Positions 11,665 through 44,290 of a stretch of 46,475 nucleotides of DNA are shown piece by piece (the first letter of the stretch is position 1; the number at the start of each line of letters is the position of its first letter). Location: NCBI GenBank assembly GCA_037134655.1, contig JBAXLR010000003.1:1-46475 (forward strand), read 5' to 3'. The DNA comes from a bacterium (lineage in GTDB: Bacteria > Bdellovibrionota_B > Oligoflexia > Oligoflexales > RGVZ01). The notes under the pieces are model-generated. The model had not been told where the DNA came from and did not search any database. It worked only from the letters and a program-made list of their open reading frames with translations. The position numbers and the translations under genes were made by a program.

Positions 11665-14600
11665 ATGAAGATCTATGACTCGCCAAAACTTCAGTACCTA
11701 GCTCTCTCAAGAGAATGGTCAGTAAGACTTTTCTGCGTTGTCAGTGTTTTTATGTTTACCGCATGCGGCAAGACAACAAACCGTGTTGAGGCTACTCTGG
11801 CAGGGGGCAATGTTGAAGTCGTCGTAGAAAAACTTTATCCCATCGAGGCCAAGCCTTCGGAAATTATCAATATCGAGGGAAAGGGCTTTTATGCCTATCA
11901 AGATCTCAAAGCAAGATTGACGTTGGCAGACGGGATTACCAAGGATGTACCTCTAACGATTGCTGACCAGCGTCATGCATCTTTTGTCATGCCAGTTGGC
12001 GCAGGTCTTGGTCTAAAATCAGTTTCCATTATCCAAGGCGAATCTAAAGATCTTGTTTCATTTCGGATCGTAGCGAATACAGATGATAACCCGCTGCCTA
12101 TTCTAATTGATGACCAAGCGGAAATTTGCAGTACAAAAGTCTATATTGACCGCAATGGAGATCAGAAAACTGGTACGAAAGATTGCGCGACTGGCACGGT
12201 CCCTGATTGCACAGAAAGCGGAAAATCTGGATGTAGAACTACGCCTCAGCTTGTATCTGCCGAGGCCTCACTTTTAGTTGCCGATAATATCAAATCAGGT
12301 GTCACCATCGCAGGAATATCGGGAGTATTAACGGCCCCGCCAAGTGATTGCTCCAGTAACGGTCAGCAGTCTTGTGTCGCTACAGGTGCTTTCTTTGCCG
12401 GAACAGCTTGCTCAGCTGGTGGGTCCAAATGTTTCTTGCCGGAGTATTCTGTATTGAGCCAGCCGCTCAAGGCCATCAGCTACAACAGCATCGATCAGTC
12501 AAAAATGCTTGATTCCCTCACCCTCGCTGGAATTACTGGAGCCATCACATCAAAAGGTAATTGGAATTTGACGTTAGCGTTCCCAGGAGCAGGCTACTAC
12601 ACCGGCACCAGTAATGCTCCGACAGCCGCGACGATTGCAAGCGGCACGACCATCACTGGCATCGCTGGATCGGGGACTCTGGAGTCTCACTCGAACTGTT
12701 CATCTGACGGCGCTACAGGCTGCGTGGCAGTTGCCACATATCCTGCAGCTCTGGCAACTGGTGCAGCATCAAAGGTTCTCTCTGGTCAAACCCTCGCCGG
12801 TGTCACAGGTAACGTCACACTACCTGCTGCAGGAAAAGTCCTCACCGGTATTACCTACGGAGTCTCAGGAACTGGGAGCTCGGGGACTCTGACCTTACCA
12901 TCAGCTTCCAATGTTCTGTCTGGAAGTGGCACCTATGGTGATCCTGGTGCTGCCGTGACGCCGTCTCTCGCCAATAAAGGATCTTGGGATCTGACGGCTA
13001 CGTTCCCTGGGGCAGGCTACTATTCCGGTGTGAGTTCTACACCTGCGGCAAGTTCTTACACGGGCACACTATTTGGAACAGCGGGAACTGGAACATTGGA
13101 ATCTCATTCCAACTGCGCCACTGCTGGTGCTCAAGGATGCGTGGCCACAGGCACGTACTTTGCCGGTACCGTTTGCGGAACAGATGGATCAAATTGCTTC
13201 CTGCCAGCCTATTCCGTACCAGGTCTTCAAACCAAAAAAGCCATCGACTTCGCAGCTATTGATAGCAGTAAAATGCTTGATTCCCTCACCCTCGCTGGAA
13301 TTACTGGAGCCATCACATCAAAAGGTAATTGGAATTTGACGTTAGCGTTCCCAGGAGCAGGCTACTACACCGGCACCAGTAATGCTCCGACAGCCGCGAC
13401 GATTGCAAGCGGCACGACCATCACTGGCATCGCTGGATCGGGGACTCTGGAGTCTCACTCGAACTGTTCATCTGACGGCGCTACAGGCTGCGTGGCAGTT
13501 GCCACATATCCTGCAGCTCTGGCAACTGGTGCAGCATCAAAGGTTCTCTCTGGTCAAACCCTCGCCGGTGTCACAGGTAACGTCACACTACCTGCTGCAG
13601 GAAAAGTCCTCACCGGTATTACCTACGGAGTCTCAGGAACTGGGAGCTCGGGGACTCTGACCTTACCATCAGCTTCCAATGTTCTGTCTGGAAGTGGCAC
13701 CTATGGTGATCCTGGTGCTGCCGTGACGCCGTCTCTCGCCAATAAAGGATCTTGGGATCTGACGGCTACGTTCCCTGGGGCAGGCTACTATTCCGGTGTG
13801 AGTTCTACACCTGCGGCAAGTTCTTACACGGGCACACTGTTTGGAACAGCAGGAACGGGCACCTTAGAGTCTCACTCAAATTGCTCCAGTAACGGACAGC
13901 AGTCTTGTGTGGCCTCAGGTACTTACTTTGCCGGTACCGTTTGCGGAACGGATGGATCGGCGTGTTATCTACCGACCTATGCGTCAGGCACGCAAAACAA
14001 AAAAGCCATTGATTTTAGTTCAATCGATTCAAGTAAAATGCTGAGCACATTAACGGTCTCCGGTGTCACAGGATCAATTGCAGCGCAGTCATGGAATCTT
14101 CAAACTTCGTTCCCTGGATCTGGTTACTACTCAAGCGTTACGAATACTCCCGCCACTAGCAGCTACACAGGGACGTTGTTTGGGAGCCCCGGTACGGCAA
14201 CTATTGAGTCTCACTCTAACTGTACTTCTGACGGAGTCACAGGTTGTGTGACGACAGCCAGTTACAAGTCGGCAAATATGACGAATGCAGTTGCCACCAA
14301 TATCAAGTCTGGCGTCACGATTGCCGGTATCGCTGGAAACTACACGGGCGGCGGAGGTTCGCCCGCCTGTGGATTTGGTGGTAACGCCAGCACAAGCTGT
14401 ACACTTAGTCAGTTTAATTTGAGCACCTACCCATTGTACGCAACCTTTAGTGGTGGCGGTGATCCAGTAGTTTACGGAACAACGTTAAACCTCGCGGTGA
14501 ATGGTAGCAGCACTGTTACTTACAATGACGTCATCAACTATGCATTCAAGGCGAATGAAACACGCTGGTTCAAGATACCATTCACCGGGTGCTCCCAAGT

Positions 14601-14886
14601 TGAGGACAACCTTAACTTTTCGGCCACGAGTGCGTTTACCGCGAAGGTTTACGACAGAGATTTGATCTATAATACGGGCACCATGTGGAGTGCCTCCGCG
14701 AAAGGAAGCTACCCATATCAATCCGCCAGCGGTGTATATTATTCAGATTTAACGCGTCCATATTTAAATGGCTCGACATGCGACTCGGTGAGCTACGGTG
14801 GCGGGACTTCATACCAATATATCTTAATTACAAATGGCGGCAGCGCTCAGACCATCAGGGTAAACTTTGAATCCGTGGGTTATTAA
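11665..14886 (+). CDS. large repetitive surface lipoprotein (1073 aa)
   Basis: Signal plus lipobox (VVSVFMFTACGKT). The body is built of Gly/Thr/Ser-rich modules with recurring TLESHSNC..G..GCVA and FPGAGYY(T/S)G motifs. Two 256-aa units are in tandem. Confidence 0.8.
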   Translation: MKIYDSPKLQYLALSREWSVRLFCVVSVFMFTACGKTTNRVEATLAGGNVEVVVEKLYPIEAKPSEIINIEGKGFYAYQDLKARLTLADGITKDVPLTIADQRHASFVMPVGAGLGLKSVSIIQGESKDLVSFRIVANTDDNPLPILIDDQAEICSTKVYIDRNGDQKTGTKDCATGTVPDCTESGKSGCRTTPQLVSAEASLLVADNIKSGVTIAGISGVLTAPPSDCSSNGQQSCVATGAFFAGTACSAGGSKCFLPEYSVLSQPLKAISYNSIDQSKMLDSLTLAGITGAITSKGNWNLTLAFPGAGYYTGTSNAPTAATIASGTTITGIAGSGTLESHSNCSSDGATGCVAVATYPAALATGAASKVLSGQTLAGVTGNVTLPAAGKVLTGITYGVSGTGSSGTLTLPSASNVLSGSGTYGDPGAAVTPSLANKGSWDLTATFPGAGYYSGVSSTPAASSYTGTLFGTAGTGTLESHSNCATAGAQGCVATGTYFAGTVCGTDGSNCFLPAYSVPGLQTKKAIDFAAIDSSKMLDSLTLAGITGAITSKGNWNLTLAFPGAGYYTGTSNAPTAATIASGTTITGIAGSGTLESHSNCSSDGATGCVAVATYPAALATGAASKVLSGQTLAGVTGNVTLPAAGKVLTGITYGVSGTGSSGTLTLPSASNVLSGSGTYGDPGAAVTPSLANKGSWDLTATFPGAGYYSGVSSTPAASSYTGTLFGTAGTGTLESHSNCSSNGQQSCVASGTYFAGTVCGTDGSACYLPTYASGTQNKKAIDFSSIDSSKMLSTLTVSGVTGSIAAQSWNLQTSFPGSGYYSSVTNTPATSSYTGTLFGSPGTATIESHSNCTSDGVTGCVTTASYKSANMTNAVATNIKSGVTIAGIAGNYTGGGGSPACGFGGNASTSCTLSQFNLSTYPLYATFSGGGDPVVYGTTLNLAVNGSSTVTYNDVINYAFKANETRWFKIPFTGCSQVEDNLNFSATSAFTAKVYDRDLIYNTGTMWSASAKGSYPYQSASGVYYSDLTRPYLNGSTCDSVSYGGGTSYQYILITNGGSAQTIRVNFESVGY
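12502..14037 (+). repeat. tandem 768-bp duplication inside the surface-protein gene
   Basis: 12502-13070 and 13270-13838 (569 bp) read as identical base for base. Off-frame track ORFs 12614..12892 and 13382..13660 give identical peptides. The remaining 199 bp of each unit are diverged but homologous. Confidence 0.9.
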
Positions 14887-19463: not shown

Positions 19464-19757
19464 TTAAGCTTTACGTTTTCTGCGTTCTTCTTCCAGCTTT
19501 TGGATCAGCCATATTTTAATTAAAGGCTGCCGGGAGACTCCGGCGCGGGCGGCTTCTTTGTCGAGTTCGTTAAGAAGCCATTCTGGCAGATCAAGATTGA
19601 CCTTTCGAATCTGGGGCTCTTTGACTATGCCACTGGTGATAAACAATTCGCCTAGGTCAGAACGATCAAGATGCTGGTCCATGGATTTGGTCGACTTAAA
19701 GGTCTTCATGGCTGCCTTTACTTTGGATTTTTTGGAAATAGGCTTTTGCCTCACCAT
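19464..19757 (-). CDS. ribbon-helix-helix / BrnA-like antitoxin (97 aa)
   Basis: C-terminal KVNLDLPEWLLNELDKEAARAGVSRQPLIKIWLIQKL fits CopG/BrnA-type antitoxins. Sits directly downstream of a BrnT remnant. Confidence 0.6.
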   Translation of the reverse strand: MVRQKPISKKSKVKAAMKTFKSTKSMDQHLDRSDLGELFITSGIVKEPQIRKVNLDLPEWLLNELDKEAARAGVSRQPLIKIWLIQKLEEERRKRKA

Positions 19758-21991: not shown

Positions 21992-23071
21992 CTATGACGT
22001 CGCTAACCGGTAAGTTCTGGCTTTTAGTTCTCCCTTTGCTTTTAAAGCACGCTTTCGCACAAGTGCTGCAAGATCTCGTTCAAGTGTGCGTCGAGGGATA
22101 TTCGGCAGCCAGCCTAAGACATCTCGCATCGAGAATTGCTCGCGCTTCGCAGCATTGGCCAGAATCTTTCGATGTCTCGCCTGTGGCGATTTTCCAGAGC
22201 TGTCCCGAAGAATTTTGCGCCCCTCTTCCACCACTGCATCTGCCGAAACGGCAAAACACTCCGCCAGAAATTCCAACACCGGATCAAGCCGTCCGAGCAA
22301 GCGACTTTGTCGGATGACCGAGTAGTACCGATCGCGACCTTGCATGATTGCTGTCTCACTGGGGACGAATCTAGCAATGCGTTGGCCACTCTGCAGAAGA
22401 AGTAAATGCTGCATCAGTCGCATGGTACGCCCGTTTCCATCGGCAAAAGGATGGATTGAAACGGCTATGACGTGGAATGAAAAGGCACGTACGAAAGGAT
22501 TCATGCCTTTGGTGTCTTCCAGCCACTTCCAAAGATCGTCGAGCAAATCTTTTAAACAATGAGGCTCCGGACAATCATCAATCTTTTCTCCACTGGCAGA
22601 ACTAACTATTGAGACATTCACCGTGCGAACACGGCCGCACTGCTTTTCCGGGATCAGGCCTTGGGTTACAAGACGCTGAATATCGCACAGATCTGCGATC
22701 TTTATGGGCCGTTTTCCCGTGGCGAGCTCATCCACGTAATCCAGTGCTGCATGATAGTTCTGGACTTCTTTAATGTCTTTTACCAGACCTACAACCCGCT
22801 GTCCTTTCAAGATGGCAGTGACCTCACTCTCACCCAATGCATTGCCTTCAATTTGATTGGAATACGTAATAGCGCGAACTTTGGCCTTTCGCAGAAGTTT
22901 CACTTCGAGCGGGGTCCCAAGGTATTCGTCAAGGAATGGGCGACTTTCAGCTATTCGCATAAGCCAATTCACAAGAGCGTCCGAGTGGACAACCTCGTAG
23001 GGAATTTTATAGCGATAGAGTGTGGGATAGCGTGGCTTCATCGGGTTAATTATCCGCCATTTATCCGCCAT
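21992..23071 (-). CDS. Fic-domain protein (class II, internal inhibitory motif) with C-terminal winged-helix-like tail
   Basis: Canonical Fic motif HPFADGNGRTMR. N-terminal SNQIEG matches the (S/T)xxxE(G/N) inhibitory helix motif. ATG 23071 preferred over the track TTG 23077. Confidence 0.9.
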   Translation of the reverse strand: MADKWRIINPMKPRYPTLYRYKIPYEVVHSDALVNWLMRIAESRPFLDEYLGTPLEVKLLRKAKVRAITYSNQIEGNALGESEVTAILKGQRVVGLVKDIKEVQNYHAALDYVDELATGKRPIKIADLCDIQRLVTQGLIPEKQCGRVRTVNVSIVSSASGEKIDDCPEPHCLKDLLDDLWKWLEDTKGMNPFVRAFSFHVIAVSIHPFADGNGRTMRLMQHLLLLQSGQRIARFVPSETAIMQGRDRYYSVIRQSRLLGRLDPVLEFLAECFAVSADAVVEEGRKILRDSSGKSPQARHRKILANAAKREQFSMRDVLGWLPNIPRRTLERDLAALVRKRALKAKGELKARTYRLATS

Positions 23072-23151
23072 TGTCAATTTGGCGGATACTGATCTAGTAG
23101 GTGCCCGTCATTTATCCGTCATTTATCCGCCATACACAACAGTGGCGGATA
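23050..23151. promoter_or_regulatory. two operator-like modules of TTATCCGCCA boxes
   Basis: Module 1: TTATCCGCCA (23050-59), TTATCCGCCA (23061-70), 9 nt, inverted TGGCGGATA (23080-88). Module 2: TTATCCGTCA (23112-21), TTATCCGCCA (23123-32), 10 nt, inverted TGGCGGATA (23143-51). Module 1 covers the Fic start codon. Confidence 0.55.
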
Positions 23152-23591: not shown

Positions 23592-23667
23592 CCGCGCAGA
23601 CATTTGCACACCCACCCCACTCCAACGTCGGAGTCATGGTTTCACGGCGGACGTGCTAACGTCCGCC
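23592..23667 (+). repeat. palindromic repeat family member plus adjacent hairpin
   Basis: CCGCGCAGACATTTGCACACCCACCC, ACTCCAACGTCGGAGT (23619-34), GGTTTCACGGCGGAC (23638-52). GGCGGACGT-gcta-ACGTCCGCC hairpin at 23646-23667. Confidence 0.75.
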
Positions 23668-25556: not shown

Positions 25557-25803
25557 GTTTGTTGACCTCTAAAATCTCTATGACTTCATAGCGGTTGGGA
25601 TCTAGCTCACGGTAGATTATCCGGTAGCCCTTCGACAACCTGACGGAACGCTGCCCCCGACGACGGCCGTGCAATGGCTCATCGTGAATTCCATTATATT
25701 TGCGGGCCTCTCGAAGTACAATCGTCTTGAGCAAATCAACCCAGTAGTCATATTTCCGCGCTATGTGAGCCGGGCAGTGATCTAAAAACATTACACACAT
25801 CAT
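25546..25803 (-). CDS. RelE/ParE-superfamily toxin
   Basis: 85 aa. GQRSVRLSKGYRIIYRELDPNRYEVIEILEVNKHEY is typical of RelE-fold toxins; toxin-first operon. Confidence 0.7.
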   Translation of the reverse strand: MMCVMFLDHCPAHIARKYDYWVDLLKTIVLREARKYNGIHDEPLHGRRRGQRSVRLSKGYRIIYRELDPNRYEVIEILEVNKHEY

Positions 25804-26328
25804 AGCCGTTAAAAATCACCGAAAAATTAAACCTCCTAAATTGCAATAGGATTAACGGCCTAAAATTTGAGAAATAATGAAAGAAATGACACTTCTTTCT
25901 TCCCGATCAGAAGAGGTTAGCCCAAACAAAGTCCACCGCATGGAGGACGCAACACCTGCCAGCATGTTAATTGCGTTGGCAAAAATCATCGAAATAGGAT
26001 CTTAAAACCTCACAAATCGGTGCTTCAATCCAGCTATTGTACAATTTATTGTAGCGTCTCTCAGTTGAAGATGATCCCACAACTTAGACGGATTTATTTA
26101 TCCAAATATCCAGCCAGGTATTTTTTTTTGACCCAACTTAAGCAAGTGTCCTCTTTCATCCCCAATACTGAACCTATGTCTCTTTCGGAGGATGAATTGA
26201 CTTAATAGATCTAGTTTCGATCCTTAGTCGAAATCAATAATCACGCGATCCAGCGTGTATACCATCCGGTATCGATCAGTGTTAAACTACTTTGGTCAAT
26301 TTCTCCACTGATACGCAAGGAAGCTAAT

Positions 26329-26949
26329 ATGAATTCGCTCCAAATTGAAACATTTGCAGTTAAATTGCAAAGACATCCACAACCATCCGAGATTCACTCG
26401 TGTTTTTGCGAATTTGTCGGCAAGTCAGACGGTAAATCTTCTGAATCGCTGGGATGTAGCGGTATTGCTCGGGACGGCGCAATACTAGTGAGACCCGCAA
26501 ATGAGCGGCAAATCACTTCAAGCGATAAAATGCAAAGTCGGTCAATCCAGATTGATTTATCCAAGCCAATTTCAATATCATTGCGGCTATGTCTCGGGGC
26601 AAATGGTGGCGGCAAGAAACGTCGAGAACGCGACGGACAACGCACAGGACTTTCTTGGAAGCAGCGGACAGCCTCTGGGCAAACGACTATCGATAAAATA
26701 CTCGAAAAACTCGAGGTGTCGGCTGGAATCAAGCCGTCTTCTGACGATAGCGCAATCGTGCGCAATCTTACACAGGAGCATGCTGGCATTCGCATTGATA
26801 GAAACGCGGGCACTTTCTTTCTCAATGATTGCCACGAGGTCATCGGCTCGTTTGAAATTATTAATATAGAAAAATTTACGGCGGCAATTCAAAGAGGCAT
26901 AGGAAAGCGTCGTTCCTATGGATTTGGGCTAATCGAGGTTATCGTATGA
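26329..26949 (+). CDS. cas6e: Cas6e-like (CasE/Cse3-type) crRNA endoribonuclease
   Basis: C-terminus ...EVIGSFEIINIEKFTAAIQRGIGKRRSYGFGLIEVIV resembles E. coli CasE ...FEGVLTINDAPALIDLVQQGIGPAKSMGCGLLSLAPL (from memory), including the Gly-rich loop. ISISLRLCLGANGGG resembles LYFRLRANP. AAGGAAG RBS. Stop overlaps the cas3 start (ATGA). Confidence 0.75.
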   Translation: MNSLQIETFAVKLQRHPQPSEIHSCFCEFVGKSDGKSSESLGCSGIARDGAILVRPANERQITSSDKMQSRSIQIDLSKPISISLRLCLGANGGGKKRRERDGQRTGLSWKQRTASGQTTIDKILEKLEVSAGIKPSSDDSAIVRNLTQEHAGIRIDRNAGTFFLNDCHEVIGSFEIINIEKFTAAIQRGIGKRRSYGFGLIEVIV

Positions 26950-29900
26950 CTGAGTTGTTTGCAAAATCTAAAGACGCTGTCAAATATCAACAGCCCCTTG
27001 ACCTCCACTTACGTGGAGTTGGCCTGACTGCGGAAAGACTTGCGCGTGATCTAAGCGGTCAAGCTCCCATGAGTAACTTCCTACGAGATGCCGCTTTTAC
27101 AGCAAAAATTGCCGGTTTCCTACACGACATTGGAAAGCTTGATTCGGGATTTCAGAGAGCACTTAATCGCGGCACTAATTCAGATGCAGACGAACAAGAA
27201 GATTCGCTACCATCGGACTATTGGCATCATGAAATCGTTTCTACCGCCCTGCTTTCGACCAAGGCACTAGCAGAATTGCTGGCCACTCTGATTCGGGAAG
27301 AGTATGGCGAAAACTTAGACTCTCGCCGCAAGAGCTCTCTTACAAGGGCAATTAAGTTTGGGGTGCTGTGGCATCACGGCCGGCGATCACGTTCAAAAAA
27401 ATGGGATTTAATATCCGCGCCTATGAGCACGGAGGCTGAGTTTTTTAACGCATCAGATATCGTTCGTGAAATCTCAGCGGATTCAAAGTATAGCGTTCAT
27501 GACAGACTGCAGACGCTTCTAAAAAGAACACTCAATAAGGACGTCTTGATTGCTGCTGCTGACCTTGAGATTTGCAAAAATACAACTGAAATTTTTCCAA
27601 GATTTCGGCAGTACTCATTGTTATCATCAAATCCCTACTTGAATTCAATGATTGCTGAGTTAGATCCCGAGTTTGATCGAATACCAAATGACAAATTTAC
27701 AGACAAATATGTCGGTAAAGTTAAGGCCATTCTCGCTAGAAATGTTAATGTCCTACGCAAAGCTGCACAATCGTGTGGCGATTCGGAGTACTCAAATACA
27801 ATAGCGCAGCTACTGCATCAACCGAGTAGGAACGGCATTTACTTAAATGAAGAGTATGACCAGGATCTTTATCTTAATGCTCTGTGTGATCTAGTCAGAT
27901 GCTTAGTGATCCAAGCAGACTGGGAGGTCTCCCAGATGGGAAAACAGGATCTAGAGCATTTAGCAAATTCCGAACCAGCCAAAATAAGATCAAATATTAA
28001 CCAACACAATTGGCTGGAACTAATTCCGTCTGACGATAGCGCTAAACTCGAAAAAGCTAAGCTGGATTCATACCGTTACCGTGTAATGGAAGAGTCTGCA
28101 AAATTAGTTTATGACTTGGGCAAACGAATCGTGATAAACCGATCCTGCGCTGGGGCCGGTAAGACACTTTGGGCACTCTCGTATTTTCAAAACCAAAAGT
28201 CGATATCCAAAATTTATTGGGTCTGCCCGCGAATACCCATTGTTCGAGGAGTATACGACGAGCTAGTTGAAGAAGTTAAAAGGCAAAGCCTATCGGGCAC
28301 TGTTGCCGTGACTCAATTATCTTCAAGCGAGATTGTTTGTAGCAATGAAAAGATTGAGCCGCTGGAAGCACAGATCATAGTAACGACATTTGACTTCATC
28401 TTATCTACCTATGTACGTCACGGGAAGGCAAATCAGCTTTCGTCCATTTATGCTGGCAGCATCATTTTTGATGAATATCACGAAATCGCAAGTGAGCCTA
28501 TGATACAGTCGTTTGCTTCTGAACTCCTTTACGCCCGAAGTCAAGTGCCTGATTCACGCACGGTGCTGCTTAGTGCGACGCCGTGCTTTCCGTTGCTAGC
28601 GTCTATGGGACTTTGCACACGTATTTCGCACGCGGATGGCAATTCTAGCTTTGAAATGAATGAGGAAGCGGGCGTTTATGCAATTCCGTTACTGGGTGCA
28701 TTTCCAGCCGTTTTTTCTGAACAAAATCTGAAAAGTAACCCGGTGATTGCGAAACAGCATCACCTTGAGCAGACAACTATGAGCGATGAGAAACATTTTT
28801 ACGAACTGGCGAAAAATCTAAGTGATCAAGGAACTCAATCGCTGTTAGCGTCATCCAGTTCGATATCTAAAACCGTAAGATTATACAAGATGTCACAAAA
28901 TGAAGGACGCGAGGACCAAATTTTTCACGGGCAGTACTATCGTGAATTGATGCCTGGAGCTAACAAATCCCATTGGACTCTCAATTATGAAGCTGTGATG
29001 GCAGGGTGGGGCAAGGCCTCCCTCAATGCCGACGGCAATTCAAGAAAAGGACATGTATGGTCCGCCCAAATGCTAAAAGCCTCATTGAATGTGTCTACGC
29101 CGCGCACTATTCATCTTACGTTAGGACCTGATTCCGACATTCAACTCTACGGTCGAAATGATCGCTTCGCCAGATCACAAGCAACTAAGAAATTTCCGAA
29201 AATTCTGATGGTTAATTCAAACGATGCGTCACATCGTTGGGCTCTGGATGCCGCCTTCGACAAGAAGATAGCTGATCGATGGTTTGAATTTATAAGGGAA
29301 AAACTCCAACATATAGGTACATCGAAAATCGTTTCCAATTCACAACTGTACGCCTGGTATGATGAATTTGCACTTAAAGAGTGGGATCCACAATCCGATC
29401 AGATTTCCTGGCGCGATTTTGCAAATTACAACTTGATAAGCGGTCTACAGAAGATGAATGCCCAGTGGCTTGTTCCACGTAACGAACCCCCATGGAGTCA
29501 CACTCACAAAACAACGCCAAATGGGCCTCGGTATGCCGGTCGAAACCTGCGTGGGGAGGGGTTTTGGGCGCGTTTAGCAGTCATCACGGATCATGAGGTA
29601 TTGGTAGACTGCCCGACTATTGAAATGACCGCGCGACCAATGGATCGACACTTCCTTGAAAGGGTGACACCTAACAGGAAGGTAAAAGAGGCAAGATGGA
29701 GAGATAAACCTTTCTTTTACTCATTACCAGGGAGTTCAGAAGATTTTAAACCTTGGTGCGAGAGCGTGAAGAGCGAGGCGCGCCGACGCTTGAGAGAATC
29801 CGGTTATTCAACAGAGAACGTCTTGAAAGAATTTAGTCGCAAAATATTGGTGTATCATTGTCATTCGACGTCTGATCCGGGTCTTGGAATGATCAGTTTG

Positions 29901-30005
29901 GCAACGCTAACTGAAGACGTGCCGTTCTGGGAAGAAAATATTTCACACGCATTTGTGCCAGCAGAAATCATGGATATATTTAAATCAATCGCAAAAATGA
30001 AATGA
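26946..30005 (+). CDS. cas3: Cas3 HD nuclease / SF2 helicase (1019 aa)
   Basis: HD-domain residues FLHDIGK, WHHE and LWHHG in the first ~150 aa. Walker A CAGAGKT, DExH box IIFDEYHE, motif III LLSATP, possible motif VI LYGRNDRF. Confidence 0.9.
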   Translation: MTELFAKSKDAVKYQQPLDLHLRGVGLTAERLARDLSGQAPMSNFLRDAAFTAKIAGFLHDIGKLDSGFQRALNRGTNSDADEQEDSLPSDYWHHEIVSTALLSTKALAELLATLIREEYGENLDSRRKSSLTRAIKFGVLWHHGRRSRSKKWDLISAPMSTEAEFFNASDIVREISADSKYSVHDRLQTLLKRTLNKDVLIAAADLEICKNTTEIFPRFRQYSLLSSNPYLNSMIAELDPEFDRIPNDKFTDKYVGKVKAILARNVNVLRKAAQSCGDSEYSNTIAQLLHQPSRNGIYLNEEYDQDLYLNALCDLVRCLVIQADWEVSQMGKQDLEHLANSEPAKIRSNINQHNWLELIPSDDSAKLEKAKLDSYRYRVMEESAKLVYDLGKRIVINRSCAGAGKTLWALSYFQNQKSISKIYWVCPRIPIVRGVYDELVEEVKRQSLSGTVAVTQLSSSEIVCSNEKIEPLEAQIIVTTFDFILSTYVRHGKANQLSSIYAGSIIFDEYHEIASEPMIQSFASELLYARSQVPDSRTVLLSATPCFPLLASMGLCTRISHADGNSSFEMNEEAGVYAIPLLGAFPAVFSEQNLKSNPVIAKQHHLEQTTMSDEKHFYELAKNLSDQGTQSLLASSSSISKTVRLYKMSQNEGREDQIFHGQYYRELMPGANKSHWTLNYEAVMAGWGKASLNADGNSRKGHVWSAQMLKASLNVSTPRTIHLTLGPDSDIQLYGRNDRFARSQATKKFPKILMVNSNDASHRWALDAAFDKKIADRWFEFIREKLQHIGTSKIVSNSQLYAWYDEFALKEWDPQSDQISWRDFANYNLISGLQKMNAQWLVPRNEPPWSHTHKTTPNGPRYAGRNLRGEGFWARLAVITDHEVLVDCPTIEMTARPMDRHFLERVTPNRKVKEARWRDKPFFYSLPGSSEDFKPWCESVKSEARRRLRESGYSTENVLKEFSRKILVYHCHSTSDPGLGMISLATLTEDVPFWEENISHAFVPAEIMDIFKSIAKMK

Positions 30006-30017
30006 GAGGTTAAGTTA

Positions 30018-31199
30018 ATGATTACGAAAGAGAAAGCTGCCACGACGAGAGTTTGGTTTGAGTATACGCTAGATGGAGAAGGCGGACTTAACTACGGGGA
30101 ATCGGAAAAAATCACCTACTCAAAAGTCGATTCAAGCGGAAGAGAAAAAAAAGAAGATAAGACGATTAAGAGGCTCAAGAAAAATACATACAGGCATGGC
30201 GGGCAATTAGTTTCTGTGCCCAAAGTTTCGTCAAACTGCATTCGCCATGGGTTGTTTCAACGGGTAGAGAACTTTATTCTACGCGAAGGTGAATCAATGA
30301 CTAGTGATTCAAAAGATAAACTATTTTGGGCAAGGTTCGGAACGCTTAGCGGCCTAATGCGAGGATATATGAATGCCGCGCAAGGCGAAACCTACAAACG
30401 TTTCTCGGCCGTAGTGGCATCTTCAGCAACGGGCGAAGTTCATATTGATCAAGAAGGTAACACATTGGTGCCTGAGATTTCTGAAGAATTTTTCAGCTCC
30501 TCGTCACGTAAGGAGGCTACAAATGGTGCCGCATCGATTTTTAACGCCGAGACCGTTGGGCGGGTCCGGTATTTTGGAGATATTCATATTGATTTAGTGA
30601 CGCTTCAGTTTTTTCCAATTTCTCCCGGTGCTGAACGAAGCTGCGTACCACTCGGAAAAAGTGGAGATAAAAATGGATATGAAGAAATTGTTGCGCAGAT
30701 GAAAAATAGCATCAATACCGCTCTGAAAAGATATTTAACTCAGCCAAACGAGGAAACTGCAAACCACGGCATTGTGAGATTCCGGGGAAGCGTTCTGCCC
30801 GCAGAAGTTGGCGAATTCGGAGTGCTTTTGACTGATAAAGGTGTATCTGCAGCAGTTTGGGGTTTTCTTAAGGACTGTCTACTACCATTTCAGATTTTTC
30901 GAGGTGGTCGTGCAAGAGCTAACCTCGATTCCATGAAAATTTACGTCGAAGATGCAAATTTCGACCGTCAAGAGTTTATGGTCATAACAAAGGGCTTGTT
31001 GAGTAAAGATGCGCTAAATAAATTTAAAGATCGGCTATTCCAGGCAAAATTTGACAACTATGATCTTGTCGCCCAAGGGCAGGACATTACAGAATATTTT
31101 AAATCAATTGAAAGGAATAAAGAGGAAGCAGGAGGCGAAGACCGTAAAAAAGCGCCCTCGGCTAATGGGAAAGATAAAACCAAGAAACGTCAGAGATAA
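30018..31199 (+). CDS. cas7: Cas7-like backbone subunit candidate (393 aa)
   Basis: By eye: GGLNYGE, then HGGQLVSVPKVSSNCIRHGLFQ (compare E. coli CasC [20 protein letters not shown], from memory), FGTLSGLMRGYM (compare ALSGRMAT) and RVRYFGDIHIDLVTLQ (compare VFYRYANINLAQL). Position between cas3 and the cas5-like gene. Lys-rich C-terminal tail. Confidence 0.65.
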   Translation: MITKEKAATTRVWFEYTLDGEGGLNYGESEKITYSKVDSSGREKKEDKTIKRLKKNTYRHGGQLVSVPKVSSNCIRHGLFQRVENFILREGESMTSDSKDKLFWARFGTLSGLMRGYMNAAQGETYKRFSAVVASSATGEVHIDQEGNTLVPEISEEFFSSSSRKEATNGAASIFNAETVGRVRYFGDIHIDLVTLQFFPISPGAERSCVPLGKSGDKNGYEEIVAQMKNSINTALKRYLTQPNEETANHGIVRFRGSVLPAEVGEFGVLLTDKGVSAAVWGFLKDCLLPFQIFRGGRARANLDSMKIYVEDANFDRQEFMVITKGLLSKDALNKFKDRLFQAKFDNYDLVAQGQDITEYFKSIERNKEEAGGEDRKKAPSANGKDKTKKRQR

Positions 31200-31258
31200 A
31201 TCTTGATTTATTTTCATCCTCATTTTCTGCGGACACCAGGGTCGATTAGGTGAATTAT

Positions 31259-32197
31259 ATGAAGTTTCTTGCGCTTAGAATTGCAGCAGCTGAATTAGTA
31301 TTGAGGAATGTTGACTCAGGTCAAGAGGCTGATGTTTATAAGAAGTATTATAAGAATCGAGAAAAACCGGACGGACATCTTCAATCTGAATTGTTTAAAT
31401 TCAACAATAGACCGCAGGATCTCATTCGCACTCTTGACACTGTTGGATTCGTGTCCGTTAGTACATTATCGGGCTTTATTTTACGCCAGATCGCAGGTGG
31501 CCAGGTAACAACAAAGATGATGAAAGGATTCGCAGCCAATCATCCTCTTGCAAAATTGCTGGCGGAATGCGAAGAGCTTGCAAAAGCTGCTTTTTTTACT
31601 GACGAGTCATCTGAATTAAAATTAGGCGCTGAGCTTATTACCTACCCTATGCGCGAGGGACAGCCTGACAAATCTCCGTTACTTGAATGGCATCTTTTCA
31701 CCTCGCAAAATCAAGCAAAATTAGACTTTATATTTGCCTTGGCGGAGTTTGCCAAACATAAAAAATGCGGACCTCGAAAACTACCAGAGGACTTTCGATT
31801 GGAGACAACAAATGATCTAAGGCAACTCTATTCATGGTTAACCGAGGTTAATAAAGATAAAAAAATAGAATCCTTTTATGAAGATTTCCGAAAAACCAAT
31901 CAAGCTTGCGCAAGTAAAAGTTGGGGGTCTATTCTTTCGGGCGGAAAGTATTGGTCGCGCCGATATTCTGATAAAACATTCACTCGAAAATTGACTATAG
32001 GTAGGACTATTTTTATCCCACTTGATAGCGAAGCGAAAGAAAAATTGGCGTCCAAAGTCATGTCATCGTCTGTTTTGCCACAAATAGGAAGATGTGTTGT
32101 AAAGCTCCAGATAATGGAAAGAAGGTCCTTTCAGCAAAAGACCGCGATACCAAGTTCAAAAAATATTTTGGAAAAATTATGTGCCAAAAGAAGTTAA
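31259..32197 (+). CDS. cas5: Cas5-like subunit candidate with large helical insertion (312 aa from ATG 31259; track start GTG 31250)
   Basis: N-terminus MKFLALRIAAAELVLRN and TLSGFILRQIAGG resemble CasD SYLILRLAGPMQAWG / TRSGLLGLLGACLG. C-terminal LPQIGRCVVKL resembles TPYLGRRSCPL (from memory). Weak motif-level evidence plus gene position. Confidence 0.5.
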   Translation: MKFLALRIAAAELVLRNVDSGQEADVYKKYYKNREKPDGHLQSELFKFNNRPQDLIRTLDTVGFVSVSTLSGFILRQIAGGQVTTKMMKGFAANHPLAKLLAECEELAKAAFFTDESSELKLGAELITYPMREGQPDKSPLLEWHLFTSQNQAKLDFIFALAEFAKHKKCGPRKLPEDFRLETTNDLRQLYSWLTEVNKDKKIESFYEDFRKTNQACASKSWGSILSGGKYWSRRYSDKTFTRKLTIGRTIFIPLDSEAKEKLASKVMSSSVLPQIGRCVVKLQIMERRSFQQKTAIPSSKNILEKLCAKRS

Positions 32198-33060
32198 ATC
32201 TTCGCAAGCTAGAAGAACATCGCAAACTCATCTCGTATCGAATGAGAAATCCTATGGTTTACCTCGAACGAGCAATTTTAAAAAATAAAGGTGGCAATGT
32301 CATCGCATATACAGGGGAAGAGATCCGTAGCATTCCAGTTGCCAACGTGGCGGCCATTGTGTTGGGACCAGGCTGCAGCGTCACGACCGAGGCCGTGCGC
32401 AGAAGTGCGGCCCGAGGCTGTACACTTATATTTGCAGGCGGTGATGGGCTTTCGGTTTTCGCTCAATCGGCTGGGTTCAGGGATGCACGGCGAAGAATTG
32501 AGCAGGGAGCAATGCATCGCTCAAAAGTTAGGCGCCTTCGTCAGGCAAGGTTCTTGTTAACAGAACGAAATCGCATGATCGCTGAGGCTGGAGATATACC
32601 AAGAATAGACTCACTAAGCATTACTGAGGCGAAGTCCGTGAATGAGCTAATGCTACTTGAAGCAAGGTGGACTCGTCAAATTTGCTTCATATTGGCTCGA
32701 AAATATAATATTCCCCGCGAATACAATCTACGGTCACCGAGCTCGCCACTGATGTTGATCAATTCATTTTTATACGCGATGGCGACATCTGTCGTAGCGT
32801 CTTTGGGATTAGATCCCGGGTTAGGTTTCCTGCATGGCGCCTCTCGAGGTGGTGGCTTAGTCTTTGATATCGCCGATGTCTTCAAACCTTTGTTAGGATT
32901 CGAACTTACCTTTTATTGTATCGCAAATAGCATCACTTCGCCCACAAAAGTCAAGGCTGAGTTCTTGAGACAAGCGCGTCGCAAGAGGCTGCAAGAACGA
33001 ATGGTAAAACTATTACTAACTTTATTTGATGAGGAAGATCATGCTGCTCGCAATAAATAG
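32179..33060 (+). CDS. cas1: Cas1 integrase, I-E-like
   Basis: IPVANVAAIVLGPGCSVTTEAVRRSAARGCTLIFAGGDGLSVFA and GFLHGASRGGGLVFDIADVFKP are colinear with E. coli K-12 Cas1 IPVGSVACIMLEPGTRVSHAAVRLAAQVGTLLVWVGEAGVRVYA / GFVHTGKPLSFVYDIADIIKF (from memory). ATG 32179 overlaps the cas5-like 3-prime end by 19 nt. The track ORF starts at 32092. Confidence 0.9.
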   Translation: MCQKKLNLRKLEEHRKLISYRMRNPMVYLERAILKNKGGNVIAYTGEEIRSIPVANVAAIVLGPGCSVTTEAVRRSAARGCTLIFAGGDGLSVFAQSAGFRDARRRIEQGAMHRSKVRRLRQARFLLTERNRMIAEAGDIPRIDSLSITEAKSVNELMLLEARWTRQICFILARKYNIPREYNLRSPSSPLMLINSFLYAMATSVVASLGLDPGLGFLHGASRGGGLVFDIADVFKPLLGFELTFYCIANSITSPTKVKAEFLRQARRKRLQERMVKLLLTLFDEEDHAARNK

Positions 33061-33292
33061 AACAAAGCGCCCCCTACGCAGAATGATTTCTGCAATTTTG
33101 GGAAGGTACATGTGGACAGTTGCTCCGGGGGTTTATTGCTGCGACTCCAAGCATGTAGGTCAACTGATTTTAGATGAAATTTCAGAACAGAAGCAAAATC
33201 TGAACTGGGATGGTCCCGTTTTGGTATCCTTGGCGGAGACTGATTCTGGGGAAGAATCTGGACTTTTGGTTTGTGATCATAGCTGGTTATAA
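33041..33292 (+). CDS. cas2: Cas2, I-E-like
   Basis: MLLAINRTKRPLRRMISAILGRYMWTVAPGVYCCDSKHVGQLILDEI vs E. coli Cas2 [45 protein letters not shown] (from memory). Overlaps the cas1 stop. The track ORF starts at TTG 33026. Confidence 0.8.
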   Translation: MLLAINRTKRPLRRMISAILGRYMWTVAPGVYCCDSKHVGQLILDEISEQKQNLNWDGPVLVSLAETDSGEESGLLVCDHSWL

Positions 33293-33299
33293 AGTTCTT

Positions 33300-34714
33300 A
33301 TGTCGCCCGCGATCGCGGGCGGTTCGCAGTTTAGAGTAACATCGCCAAAACTTCCACCTTGAATGTCGCCCGCGATCGCGGGCGGTTCGCAGTGACTTCA
33401 TAGCCGCAACACTTGCAGCCTTTGTATGTCGCCCGCGATCGCGGGCGGTTCGCAGGAAAGCTGACCGGTATGTTGCCCAAGAGTTGTAATGTCGCCCGCG
33501 ATCGCGGGCGGTTCGCAGATAAAACCCTCTGGCGTCCCAGACCCGAAACTATGTCGCCCGCGATCGCGGGCGGTTCGCAGGTATGGATGACACGAAGGCT
33601 AAAGAAGCCCGCGATGTCGCCCGCGATCGCGGGCGGTTCGCAGAATGATGACGGTGATGGAAAGTCGGCAGGATATATGTCGCCCGCGATCGCGGGCGGT
33701 TCGCAGATGAGTAAAGTACCTTCACTTGCCGATGCTGGTATGTCGCCCGCGATCGCGGGCGGTTCGCAGTACACCATACAGCTGTCACCCGTCACATTTT
33801 GTATGTCGCCCGCGATCGCGGGCGGTTCGCAGAAAGAAAGGACTCTATGCTGCCCCCTACAGATTATGTCGCCCGCGATCGCGGGCGGTTCGCAGCATGA
33901 GCGCATACATGAGGCTCTTGGTGATTTCATGTCGCCCGCGATCGCGGGCGGTTCGCAGCTTAGGATGGCCGAACAATTTGGAACGGCTTTCATGTCGCCC
34001 GCGATCGCGGGCGGTTCGCAGAACTACTAACCTGCTCCCGAAGCTGATCTACAGATGTCGCCCGCGATCGCGGGCGGTTCGCAGATGACCTCCATATCCT
34101 CAGACGGGCAATCCCACATGTCGCCCGCGATCGCGGGCGGTTCGCAGTCAGCAAGAGTGCCGCTGATTTCAAATGTAGCTATGTCGCCCGCGATCGCGGG
34201 CGGTTCGCAGTAAAGATTACCGACACCACCCGCTGATACTTGTATGTCGCCCGCGATCGCGGGCGGTTCGCAGAAGGACTTGGTAGCTTTCCTAGAGGCA
34301 CCAGACATGTCGCCCGCGATCGCGGGCGGTTCGCAGTATAAAACTATAGAGCATGACAAGTATAGGGTGATGTCGCCCGCGATCGCGGGCGGTTCGCAGT
34401 CGCCAGTGTCGCCTTTGTCACCTTTAAGCCCTATGTCGCCCGCGATCGCGGGCGGTTCGCAGTTGCGTACCGGATTTGGACAGCCTTGTTACGCTATGTC
34501 GCCCGCGATCGCGGGCGGTTCGCAGATCAACGGCAAGCCCACCATGTCGGCAGAGATTATGTCGCCCGCGATCGCGGGCGGTTCGCAGAAGCCAAAGCTT
34601 AAGGGAGATAAGACTTGAATAATGTCGCCAGCGAGCGCGGGCAGTTCGCAGTCGATATAAACCCCAGCCGAGATTTCTACTTAGATGTCGCCAGCGAGCG
34701 CGGGCAATCACCGA
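33300..34714 (+). CRISPR. CRISPR array: 23 repeats (21 identical, 2 degenerate at the distal end), 22 unique spacers
   Basis: 30-nt repeat ATGTCGCCCGCGATCGCGGGCGGTTCGCAG. Repeat starts: 33300, 33363, 33426, 33489, 33551, 33614, 33677, 33740, 33803, 33866, 33929, 33992, 34055, 34118, 34181, 34244, 34307, 34370, 34433, 34496, 34559, 34622 (3 mismatches) and 34685 (3-prime end lost). Spacers are 33 nt (one of 32). The repeat is an 18-nt perfect palindrome CGCCCGCGATCGCGGGCG plus the 8-nt tail GTTCGCAG, which sets + strand orientation. Confidence 0.97.
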
Positions 34715-34805: not shown

Positions 34806-35705
34806 TCAAATCGGAAATATATCAGACAATTCTTTAATTATATTGTCCCTAAAAATCTCTCTTCGATGCCACCGAATGTATTCTAGTGACGGCTCACTTC
34901 CCGATTGATTGGGCAAGATGACGGCCTTGCCATGGTGTCGGTAAAAGACTTCTTCCATGGGGCCTGGACCATTGAGAGATTTTGAGACGAGGATAGAGCG
35001 TTCATCTGAGAGAGCAATGGCTCCTGAGTCGAAGGCTTTGTGGTGAATGGAGCACAGAGCTAGGCCATTGGTGTCGTGATCAGGTCCGTTGTAGGAGTGC
35101 CACTTGATGTGGGCAGCCTCAATGCCCATGGGCGCGTGTCCCAGGCGAGCGCCGTATTGGCAGACGGCACAACTATAGCGGTAGAGTTCAAGGATTCTTT
35201 TGGCGAACTTGGGATCTCGTTTTCGTTTGACGGCTGATTTGTACCATTCTGCTGACAGACCAAGACACTCGCGAATGTCTTCGTGGAGACTGGGCGGAAA
35301 GTAGTCGTCAAGAATCTGCTGGGACAACTCACTTAGAAGCTTTGGGTCAGATTTAAGGGCATCAAAGATTTCACTGGTAAAGCCTGCTTTGATATTGAGA
35401 TCAATAAGGTCTTTCGGCGACACGTCGCCTGACTTATTGGGATGAAGATCATCGGCTCTCGGAATGTCCCAGAGCTTTCCGCCCATGTCGCCTCGTAGCC
35501 GCCAGAAGGGATACTGGGGGTTTGGAGCAGAGTTTGAAAACCTCGTCAGAAGCTCTTTGAGATCTGACTCAAGTTCTTGGTAGGTAAGAAGCCTCGGCTC
35601 CCCCATCTGTAGTCTTGATAGCGCCAGAAGAATCAGTAGGGGTTTGTGAGGCGCGACCTGATCGCCACGTTTGAAGGTGTTAAGTTTTAGGTCGGAGAGG
35701 TTCAC
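34806..35705 (-). CDS. HNH nuclease with N-terminal DNA-modification-reader-like domain (type IV restriction-like; resembles SBD-HNH phosphorothioate-dependent enzymes)
   Basis: HNH core CAVCQYGARLG...IEAAHIKWHSYNGPDHDTNGLALCSIHHKAFDSGAI. The N-terminal KRGDQVAPHKPLLILLALSRLQMGEPRLLTYQELE...YPFWRLRGD matches my recollection of the sulfur-binding-domain family annotated as phosphorothioated-DNA-binding restriction endonuclease. Confidence 0.7.
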   Translation of the reverse strand: MNLSDLKLNTFKRGDQVAPHKPLLILLALSRLQMGEPRLLTYQELESDLKELLTRFSNSAPNPQYPFWRLRGDMGGKLWDIPRADDLHPNKSGDVSPKDLIDLNIKAGFTSEIFDALKSDPKLLSELSQQILDDYFPPSLHEDIRECLGLSAEWYKSAVKRKRDPKFAKRILELYRYSCAVCQYGARLGHAPMGIEAAHIKWHSYNGPDHDTNGLALCSIHHKAFDSGAIALSDERSILVSKSLNGPGPMEEVFYRHHGKAVILPNQSGSEPSLEYIRWHRREIFRDNIIKELSDIFPI

Positions 35706-42829: not shown

Positions 42830-43047
42830 GAAAAGAATATGACTTTTCAAAATCAAAGAAAAATCCCTACGCTAAAAAGCTAAAATCTCGGACGACCATT
42901 AGACTTGATATGGACGTGGTGAGTTACTTTCAAAAGCTTGCCGATAAAACGGGCGTACCCTATCAAACACTGATCAATCTTTACCTGAAAGATTGCATGG
43001 AAACTAAAAGAGCGCCTAGTTTCAAGTGGAAGCGCACGGGTGATTAA
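42826..43047 (+). CDS. brnA: BrnA antitoxin (identical duplicate)
   Basis: Peptide identical to 40000..40221. Convergent 4-nt overlap with the WYL gene stop. Confidence 0.85.
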   Translation: MRKEYDFSKSKKNPYAKKLKSRTTIRLDMDVVSYFQKLADKTGVPYQTLINLYLKDCMETKRAPSFKWKRTGD

Positions 43048-44081
43048 CCCGCCTTCTTTGGGTAACTAGACGTGATCTCTTGGGCAGCTTTGCATACGAG
43101 ATCTTGAAGTTTAGCCGGCCCAAGAACCTTGGCGTCACTGCTAAAGCCCAAGATCCAGCAGACAAGCTGCGGCGTGATGCCAACTTGTAGTTTAAGTTTC
43201 ACGCTACCATCAGTGTTACTTGTCAGAACTTGGCTTGGATGCCAGGTGCGCTCTTTGATGTACTGAGATCTTGAAGCTATAAACAAGATTTCCACAGGTT
43301 CGGTTTCGCTTGCACGCCAGACGCCAAAACTGGACTTAAAGTGCTCGTCAGGAGATGAGATTTTTCCGGTGTAGGCTCTGTCAATCATTTCGACCTTTGA
43401 CATGCGAGGAAGAGCAAAGGTTTTGATGGTTTGATCGGCAAGATCTTCTGCCACGAGATAAAGACTGCGCTCTCGAAAGTAAAGATAATGGGGGCCGAGC
43501 TCTCGCTCCCTGTCAGTCTGGGAGTTTGAGGATTTGTATTGAAGCCTTAGACACTGTCCTTCACCAATAGCTGCATGAATGGTGTCAACCACGTCTGGAT
43601 CAGAGTCGACTACTTGTGCGTCTGAAAGATCTACGTGCAGATCTTTTGAAAGTTCATCAAGAAGACTACGGTTACGAGAGCCGATAAGATCACTCACTTG
43701 TTCAAAGAAGTGATCAAGGCCAGCAAATAAAGGATTTTTGGAGAGGGCTTTAAACTGTGCTTTGGCCAAATAAAGACCTGCCAGTTGTCTTTGAGAGATT
43801 TTTAGTACGGCAGCCTGAGCTTGTCTCGCCACGCGTGGACTGATGTCCACTTTCCAGCGTACCCCTCCTTGGTCTGATTTTGATCCAGACTCGGCGAGAG
43901 GAATTCCTGCAGCTAGAAGACCTTCAATGTCCCGGTGAATGGTGCGTTTAGTGACCGAGTAGCCGCGGTCAGTCAGTTGATCGGTGATCTCGGCGGGAGA
44001 CAGTCCGCGTGTTCCGGCAGCTTGCAGCATCTGATGGATGACCAGCTGTCTTGATGATTGACTGTTGCGGCCTTTGGACAT
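43044..44081 (-). CDS. HTH + WYL-domain transcriptional regulator (YafY-like)
   Basis: ATG 44081. N-terminal wHTH (RQLVIHQMLQAAGTRGLSPAEITDQLTDRGYSVTKRTIHRDIEGLLAAGIPL). The central and C-terminal regions have WYL-type architecture (LRLQYKSSNSQTDRERELGPHYLYFRERSLYLVA...). Confidence 0.75.
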   Translation of the reverse strand: MSKGRNSQSSRQLVIHQMLQAAGTRGLSPAEITDQLTDRGYSVTKRTIHRDIEGLLAAGIPLAESGSKSDQGGVRWKVDISPRVARQAQAAVLKISQRQLAGLYLAKAQFKALSKNPLFAGLDHFFEQVSDLIGSRNRSLLDELSKDLHVDLSDAQVVDSDPDVVDTIHAAIGEGQCLRLQYKSSNSQTDRERELGPHYLYFRERSLYLVAEDLADQTIKTFALPRMSKVEMIDRAYTGKISSPDEHFKSSFGVWRASETEPVEILFIASRSQYIKERTWHPSQVLTSNTDGSVKLKLQVGITPQLVCWILGFSSDAKVLGPAKLQDLVCKAAQEITSSYPKKAG

Positions 44082-44290
44082 GATTGCGAACACTCTCCAC
44101 AATACAAACATACTAGGTGGGCGCAGAACGGCCTTTCGGGCAGCTGACGGCGCGTAGCTTTTTGAGGGATCGGAAGGGTGTGAAAAGGCTTTAGATAATC
44201 TAGCAAATAGAGGTCTAAATTATAATAATATCATTCTGTTATGATTTAAGCGAAACCCCTCAGTATATCTCGGATAAGGGGTCCTAGGAT

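Follow-up and report, generated by a model that had tools for sequence, protein, structure and literature searches.

To our knowledge, subtype I-F2 (I-Fv) of CRISPR-Cas systems is the only well-characterised type I effector so far that works without large and small subunits. A helical insertion in its Cas5fv protein replaces Cas8, and the system is under development as a compact genome-editing tool. In Shewanella putrefaciens CN-32 it is made of Cas6f, Cas7fv, Cas5fv and Cas2-3 (PDB 5O6U, 5O7H, 9G44). It works without Cas8 or Cas11 (PMC4937334), Cas5 alone senses the protospacer adjacent motif (PAM), and Cas7 recruits Cas3 (PMC12956352, PMC6546366, PMC4937334). The fusion of Cas2 and Cas3 is the norm in I-F2 (PMC12956352), and its PAM is GG (PMC4937334, PMC12956352). 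Here we analyse a CRISPR-Cas locus carried by contig JBAXLR010000003.1 (assembly GCA_037134655.1) of a bacterium of the Oligoflexales (Bdellovibrionota_B; lineage RGVZ01). The window, i.e., the whole stretch of DNA under analysis, comprises the 46,475 nt from position 1 to 46,475 of the forward strand. The locus is probably a very distant relative of I-F2, in which an I-F2-type interference module would be associated with unfused adaptation and processing parts that are closer to those of I-E.

Six co-directional genes lie tightly packed between positions 26329 and 33292, and a 23-repeat array starts 7 nt after the cas2 stop. All are on the + strand, in the order cas6-cas3-cas7-ORFan-cas1-cas2-array, where ORFan stands for an open reading frame (ORF) without recognisable relatives:

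25786..26328, + strand: presumed promoter or regulatory region of the cas operon, non-coding, conserved with L001 (a second assembly, see following)
26329..26949, + strand: cas6, 206 aa, predicted Cas6e-like CRISPR RNA (crRNA) endoribonuclease, from C-terminal profile matches
26946..30005, + strand: cas3, 1019 aa, N-terminal HD nuclease and superfamily 2 helicase, without Cas2 domain, from the Cas3fv profile
30018..31199, + strand: cas7, 393 aa, Cas7fv-like subunit of the backbone, its C-terminal tail rich in lysine, from Cas7fv profiles
31259..32197, + strand: 312-aa ORFan (315 aa from a GTG at 31250), a putative Cas5 equivalent on position, size and necessity
32179..33060 (alternative start 32092), + strand: cas1, 293 aa, from the Cas_Cas1 profile
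33041..33292, + strand: cas2-like, 83 aa, a weak assignment from position and size
33300..34714, + strand: CRISPR array, 23 repeats of 30 nt and 22 spacers

The cas6/cas3 junction is an ATGA overlap, cas3 is followed by the 393-aa ORF after 12 nt and the latter by the 315-aa ORF after 50-59 nt, whereas the other junctions overlap (the cas2-like ORF overlaps the cas1 stop by 20 nt). An earlier note on this DNA, made from the letters alone, had described the same packed operon and array, which the ORF list and the translations reproduce, and its gene set of Cas6, Cas3, two effector ORFs, Cas1, Cas2 and an array is borne out. It had also claimed that cas8 and cas11 are absent from the locus, and we find the same. 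Among the operon proteins and the other large ORFs of the window there is no match to Cas8 or Cas11 profiles in NCBIfam, Pfam and PADLOC; in particular, Cas8e (Cse1) matches none of them, and neither effector ORF scores as Cas8e/Cse1 or Cas11/Cse2. Because the largest intergenic gap in the operon is of 59 nt, there is no room for a hidden cas8 or cas11 gene. A scan for promoter and terminator consensus sequences gave no more sites than in shuffled sequence and no convincing promoter for the cas operon.

The affiliation of the interference genes comes from Cas3 and from the 393-aa protein. The best profile of Cas3 is Cas3fv of PADLOC (2.1e-53, 180 bits), the next best having about 52 bits and Cas3e 48 bits. 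NCBIfam cas3_HD (51.8 bits, above its cut-off of 43.45) and Pfam Cas3_HD and ResIII also match. Among all PDB sequences the sole match is 9G44_A (1e-27), which is the Cascade-bound Cas2-3 of S. putrefaciens I-F2 (PMC12956352). The HD (FLHDIGK), Walker A (AGAGKT) and DEYH motifs are intact. Since the HD domain begins at about residue 6, there is no fused Cas2, as the earlier note had stated, and a separate 83-aa gene stands after cas1. Cas3 as a single query against GTDB genomes returned nothing. The 393-aa protein matches cas_Cas7fv in NCBIfam (2.5e-15, 56.6 bits, for an equivalog cut-off of 200) and Cas7fv in PADLOC (7e-10), and its precomputed Pfam assignment is PF28157, "Cas7fv-like". It has no Cas7e/Cse4 and no Csy3 match and, apart from Cas7fv, only a weak one to DevR. 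With metagenomic Cas7fv proteins it shares 23-28% identity over some 250 aa and the motifs VSxxCxRxxLF, GLxRGY, LQFxP and ExGxLL. By its sequence, this protein is thus best regarded as a Cas7fv homologue. In a word-indexed search of 5.8e9 clusters this protein found no sequence but its own, and nothing was found with Cas7 by tblastn against plasmids or with a Cas7 alignment against viral contigs. The presence of a Cas3fv-type Cas3 together with a Cas7fv-like protein indicates that the interference module shares ancestry with that of I-F2, and was not reduced independently from I-E.

The C-terminal tails of Cas7 are lysine-rich in the window (31100-31199) and in a metagenomic relative, L002 (11700-11827), e.g., KKAPSANGKDKTKKRQR; canonical Cas7fv proteins lack them. 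Such tails might take over from Cas11 the binding of the displaced DNA strand.

The adaptation and processing genes show other resemblances. Cas1 matches Cas_Cas1 in Pfam (3.7e-19) and the generic cas1 model of NCBIfam (96.8 bits, above cut-off). Its best subtype model is Cas1e, with 117 bits for a cut-off of 215.6, against 78 bits for Cas1f. Its near-full-length PDB matches include the I-E Cas1 of Megasphaera (8FY9/8FYC), the next chains being matched in the C-terminal half only. Cas6 narrowly exceeds the cut-off of Pfam PF08798, the Cse3 family (9.3e-6, 26.4 bits versus 25), and matches the Cas6 and Cas6e profiles of PADLOC at 1e-6 to 7e-6; it reaches 17 bits with NCBIfam casE (cut-off 45.2) and has no match to Csy4/Cas6f profiles. 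Its top PDB matches are four Cse3 structures, at the equivalent C-terminus and non-significant. The 83-aa ORF may be cas2, as its position and size would fit. Its product gives a colinear BLASTP alignment of 75 aa with E. coli Cas2 (28% identity, E = 0.07, against an approximate E. coli sequence). The repeat folds as RNA into a GC-rich hairpin of 7-8 bp with a 4-nt loop, followed by 7-8 unpaired nt; on the + strand the single-stranded tail of about 8 nt after the hairpin is GUUCGCAG.

These traits are the ones that one would expect if a I-E system had lost Cas8e and Cas11 independently, the two effector ORFs being derived Cas7e and Cas5e. The Cas1e-best Cas1, the Cse3-family match of Cas6, the colinearity with E. 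coli Cas2, the repeat with its 7-bp stem, 4-nt loop, 8-nt tail and 30/33-nt periodicity, and a separate cas3 with N-terminal HD, as in I-E, all speak for such a history. Against it stand the specific match of Cas7 to Cas7fv with none to Cse4, the 180 bits of Cas3 with Cas3fv versus 48 with Cas3e, and an I-F2 Cas3 as the only structural match. The earlier note had proposed precisely such an independent reduction on an I-E chassis. The I-E-like look that it described holds for the C-terminus of Cas6, the best subtype of Cas1 and the shape of the repeat, with the reservation that Cas1 stays below the Cas1e cut-off. The independent reduction is not supported, given the Cas3fv and Cas7fv matches, the match to 9G44 and a set of metagenomic loci that bridge the two architectures.

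The search for syntenic loci that the earlier note had suggested recovered L001, with the same six genes, and the I-F2-like loci with unfused cas3, L002 to L005 and L007. Beyond the copies of the cassette itself, the nearest Cas3 is about 27% identical and belongs to such loci. L002, L003 and L004 (JGI 3300073502, 3300075671 and 3300075670) have the order cas3-cas7fv-cas5fv-cas6-cas1-small ORF-array, and L005 and L007 (JGI 3300055726) the order csy4-cas3-cas7fv-cas5fv followed by an I-F-type array. In both sets cas3 lacks a Cas2 domain, and the Cas3fv match starts at profile position 108. The 377-aa proteins of the loci with unfused cas3 are true Cas5fv homologues (PDB 5O6U_F, 2e-37). L002 is clearly I-F2-like, with a Cas7fv of 225 bits, above cut-off, and yet its Cas1 is best matched by Cas1e and its Cas6 is not Csy4. 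This Cas6 has the C-terminal and histidine motifs in common with the one of the window, including P-x-P-x-E-[IL]-H (His23). The repeats of L002, L003 and L004 are of 27-28 nt, with a GC-rich stem and a CTTAGAGG tail; in L002 and L003 (L003 11110-12217) they look like a hybrid of an I-E-like stem with an I-F-like tail. Hence, the "I-E-like" traits occur within the Cas7fv lineage, and we regard the independent loss from I-E as quite improbable. L006 and L008-L018 are I-F2 loci too, either canonical or fragmentary, and where complete they are ordered cas1-cas2/3-cas7fv-cas5fv-cas6f. Pairwise scores place the window at equal distance from all related loci, with L002 and L005 intermediate, which makes of the window the deepest branch. 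The loci with unfused cas3 bridge the architectures of the window and of I-F2, and L002 and L003 apparently represent an undescribed intermediate architecture.

The array consists of 30-nt repeats (ATGTCGCCCGCGATCGCGGGCGGTTCGCAG), 21 of the 23 being identical and the two cas-distal ones degenerate, and of 22 spacers, all of 33 nt but for one of 32 nt; 22 matches are observed, versus 0 in shuffled sequence. An Rfam scan at gathering thresholds returned nothing, and no CRISPR-DR family came up to threshold. The newest spacers adjoin cas2, and the degenerate repeats are at the cas-distal end. As the cas2 stop is 7 nt before the first repeat, any leader or integration signal would have to extend into the 3' end of cas2 (33200-33292); a leader that overlaps the cas2 coding sequence would be unusual. 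The core of the repeat, GCGATCGC, is the cyanobacterial HIP1 octamer, and it was considered as the sign of a cyanobacterial genome. This was rejected: its 21 occurrences in the window are all inside the array, and an octamer found nowhere else in 46 kb is uninformative about the host.

At least 8 of the 22 spacers match phage contigs of IMG/VR. The whole of this database was searched with spacers 1-7, with N at every sixth position, and the fetched viral loci were then re-scanned with all 22. Five of the seven newest spacers match phage perfectly (1, 2, 4, 5 and 6), and the re-scan adds a perfect match of spacer 8, one of spacer 15 with 2 mismatches (positions 3 and 5) and one of spacer 22, the oldest, with 3 mismatches. 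A single viral locus, L019, which encodes tail-fibre and virion proteins, is the target of spacers 1, 2, 8 and 15; spacer 3 has only a degenerate match to it, with 8 mismatches. In the window and in the related cas loci there is no match to any of the spacers. On the 5' side, all 7 independent protospacers with up to 2 mismatches have G at -3 and T at -2 (for a background GT frequency of 0.057, naive P ~2e-9 before correction), position -1 is A, G or C, and there is no 3' motif. The PAM is thus 5'-GT-N, type I-style and distinct from that of I-F2, and the conserved GT on the 5' side fixes the crRNA strand as +. The uptake of phage spacers is recent and selective. The target of spacer 22 is flanked by GAA in place of GT-N. 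The older spacers 15 (L019 11466-11498, with seed mismatches) and 22 (L023 8156-8188, with altered PAM) show a pattern like that of phage escape.

The likeness to I-F2 concerns homologous Cas3 and Cas7, the lack of Cas8 and Cas11 with three effector candidates (the third putative), a cas7 gene followed by a gene in the position of cas5, a 5' PAM, and a hairpin repeat with an 8-nt handle. The differences are the following. I-F2 has fused cas2-cas3, whereas cas2 is unfused in the window; Cas6 is Cas6e-like instead of Csy4, and the scores of Cas1 are closer to Cas1e; no similarity between the ORFan and Cas5fv is detectable; the repeat and spacer are of 30 and 33 nt instead of 27-28 and 32; I-F repeats end in CTTAGAAA and the one of the window in GTTCGCAG; the PAM is GT-N instead of GG; the order is cas6-cas3-cas7-X-cas1-cas2; and the 393-aa Cas7, with its lysine-rich tail, is about 25% identical, below the equivalog cut-off. 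With L002-L005 and L007 the window shares a stand-alone Cas3 without Cas2 domain; with L002 in particular, a Cas6 that is not Csy4, a Cas1 best matched by Cas1e, the succession cas1-small ORF-array and the lysine-rich Cas7 tail; and with L005, the order cas6-cas3-cas7-(Cas5 position). In loci of the L002 and L005 types, unlike the window, Cas7fv (214-235 bits) and Cas5fv are clear and the 28-nt repeats are I-F-like, ending in CTTAGAGG or CTTAGAAA; the proteins of these loci are only 22-29% identical to those of the window. The I-E systems (Cascade of E. coli and T. fusca) resemble it by a separate cas3 with N-terminal HD, separate cas1 and cas2, a Cas6e-type Cas6 C-terminus, a GC-rich repeat stem-loop, and repeats of about 29-30 nt with spacers of 32-33 nt. 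They differ in that no Cas8e, Cas11, Cas7e or Cas5e is detectable in the window, where Cas3 and Cas7 group with I-F2.

The locus thus lacks the effector signatures of I-E and several features of I-F2, in agreement with the view of the earlier note that it cannot be placed in the current scheme. The best description of it is a new variant of the Cas7fv lineage without Cas8, one that branches deeply and has no clean fit to an existing subtype. More tentatively, it could stand for an unclassified deep-branching type I lineage, at the level of variant or subtype, that left the I-F2 stem before the cas2-cas3 fusion and before Csy4, with I-E-type adaptation and processing, an I-F2-type effector, and a PAM reader that is either an unrecognisable Cas5 or an unrelated reader of GT-N. 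The 2025 classification update mentions an "I-F variant intermediate between I-F1 and I-F2" (PMC12669027), which like the window is rare, I-F-related and outside canonical I-F1 and I-F2; its gene content is given in Extended Data Fig. 1 of that work, and it may be relevant to the window. A literature search of incomplete coverage found no description of the present architecture.

Several observations weigh against an I-F2-like complex in this locus. The scores of Cas7 and Cas1 fall below curated family cut-offs, the matches of Cas6 span only the C-terminal G-rich loop (residues 170-204, about 35 residues), and the Cas2-like 83-aa protein has no HMM or PDB match even at E ≤ 10. AlphaFold2 models are unusable, both for the 393-aa protein with single-sequence input and for the ORFan without multiple alignment (mean predicted local distance difference test scores of 32 and 35). 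For the ORFan, neither Cas5fv nor any protein of the repeat-associated mysterious protein (RAMP) superfamily shows a detectable similarity: a hidden Markov model of 12 Cas5fv sequences gives it -2 bits, with 343 of 454 scoring shuffled copies equal or better; hhalign gives a probability of 0.2% with Cas5fv; and position-specific scoring matrices of three conserved Cas5fv blocks score it no better than shuffles. Finally, the absence of cas8 and cas11 holds for 46 kb, so that copies may lie elsewhere in the genome, and consistent PAMs demonstrate selective adaptation, not interference.

The start of the ORFan, as chosen by public gene callers, is an ATG at 31259 preceded by an AGGTG Shine-Dalgarno sequence, which gives 312 aa. 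It has no match in Pfam, NCBIfam, PADLOC (including all Cas profiles) or PDB, and among 5.8e9 clusters a word-indexed search finds only the ORFan itself, as does an exhaustive phmmer run with the 315-aa form over 1.84e9 representative proteins. The 12 homologues of the Cas5fv test set were gathered from related loci, and a three-sequence subset matches PDB 5O6U_F at 2e-37. Motifs of the ORFan that look like those of Cas5fv by eye (N-terminal TLSGFILRQIAG, C-terminal LPQIGRCVV) were rejected, since the model, hhalign and the block matrices are all at chance. The ORFan might be no Cas5 homologue at all. It would then be an unrelated recruit, reading the PAM or substituting for the large subunit, or an accessory protein, and Cascade could be made, e.g., of Cas7 and Cas6 only, with either of them capping the 5' handle. 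The lack of similarity to Cas5, Cas8 and Cas11 profiles and of any relative among the 1.84e9 representatives is in line with such a recruit, as is a GT-N PAM, which compared with the GG of I-F2 fits a different reader.

On the other hand, the ORFan comes directly after cas7, which is the place of cas5fv in every related I-F2-like locus examined, and its size is close to that of Cas5fv (332-392 aa). That purifying selection has kept it in L001 is a further indirect point for a Cas5 role. Furthermore, Cas5fv diverges far faster than Cas7fv: pairs of Cas7 that score 130-195 bits have cognate Cas5 pairs of 29-58 bits, and the distance of the window Cas7 to the related loci is of 38-57 bits. Because Cas5fv is the fastest-evolving subunit, a Cas5 homologue at this distance is expected to be lost in the noise. 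Hence, the absence of a match is no argument against homology between the ORFan and Cas5, nor does it establish such homology. We also know of no type I effector that does without Cas5. From its position, its size and the necessity of such a subunit, we infer that the ORFan is the Cas5 equivalent, and consider an unrelated protein in this place improbable.

One may also ask if the locus is incomplete or decaying, in which case interference would be lost or would need Cas8 and Cas11 from elsewhere, and adaptation alone would be active. This would be compatible with the 46 kb of genome that are visible and with PAM and spacer evidence that concerns adaptation only. However, every gene is intact, the Cas3 motifs included, and the same six genes recur in another assembly, where the upstream context is partly different. 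In this assembly, L001 (Logan SRR24319163), the whole cassette is about 95% identical between a point 540 nt upstream of cas6 and the first repeat, and all six genes are under purifying selection, with ratios of nonsynonymous to synonymous divergence (dN/dS) of 0.02-0.37. The ratio is 0.02 for cas7, 0.13 for the cas2-like gene (84% aa identity), 0.16 for cas3, 0.23 for the ORFan (98% aa identity) and 0.37 for cas6. The 21 identical repeats and the perfect phage matches of five of the seven newest spacers also speak against decay, and the related I-F2 works without Cas8 and Cas11 (PMC4937334). We thus find a decaying locus very improbable, and think it likely that this is a functional type I CRISPR-Cas system without Cas8 and Cas11.

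The homology with L001 starts abruptly at 25786 of the window (about 4100 of L001) and continues at about 95% into cas6. This abrupt boundary indicates that the CRISPR cassette borders a variable island. Upstream of it the two sequences share only short patches (window 19474-19581 and 23616-23652). Within the cassette (window 26329-33292, L001 4652-11615) divergence is a mosaic, with synonymous divergence (dS) of about 0.04 in cas7, the ORFan and cas1, 0.25 in cas3 and 0.64 in cas2, the most diverged gene. This suggests recombination within the cassette between related strains. Fragments of the cassette are also present in metagenomes of JGI and of the European Nucleotide Archive.

The mechanism that we propose, with I-F2 as precedent for the part of the ORFan and for the docking of Cas3 (PMC6546366, PMC12956352), would account for what the ORFan does, how the complex is composed, where the crRNA is cut and how Cas3 is recruited. 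Transcription of the array would be on the + strand and might continue from the cas operon by read-through, as only 7 nt lie between cas2 and the first repeat. The Cas6e-like nuclease would cut at the 3' base of the GC-rich hairpin and remain bound, leaving crRNAs with the 8-nt 5' handle GUUCGCAG and a 3' hairpin. Several Cas7fv-like subunits would coat the 33-nt spacer, and the ORFan, in the role of Cas5fv, would cap the 5' handle and read the 5'-GT-N PAM. After R-loop formation, the stand-alone Cas3 would, as in I-F2, dock without Cas8 on the displaced strand and directly on the Cas7 backbone, and then degrade the target. The separate Cas1-Cas2 integrase would pick GT-N-flanked protospacers and insert them at the cas2-proximal end.

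Directly downstream of the array there is an HNH endonuclease gene (34806-35705, - strand; HNH_2 in Pfam and HNH, type II restriction-enzyme-like, in PADLOC), which may be a separate defence gene. A Fic/DOC-family protein is encoded upstream of the locus (21992-23077, - strand), and an HTH-WYL-WCX regulator 8 kb downstream (43044-44111, - strand); WYL regulators are often linked to defence loci. Two large ORFs, at 6454-8961 (- strand, 835 aa) and 11665-14886 (+ strand, 1073 aa), have no Pfam or PADLOC match. A tRNA search returned nothing.

In conclusion, this locus and the metagenomic intermediates show that Cas7fv systems without Cas8 form a lineage of greater breadth and age than canonical I-F2, one that is combined with an unfused Cas3, with nucleases of Cas6e-like type and with Cas1 proteins that are closer to Cas1e. 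This bears on the relationship between I-E and I-F, and on whether the loss of Cas8 preceded the cas2-cas3 fusion. The locus is also a natural experiment in PAM reading, with a new GT-N PAM and a likely reader that has no recognisable relatives.

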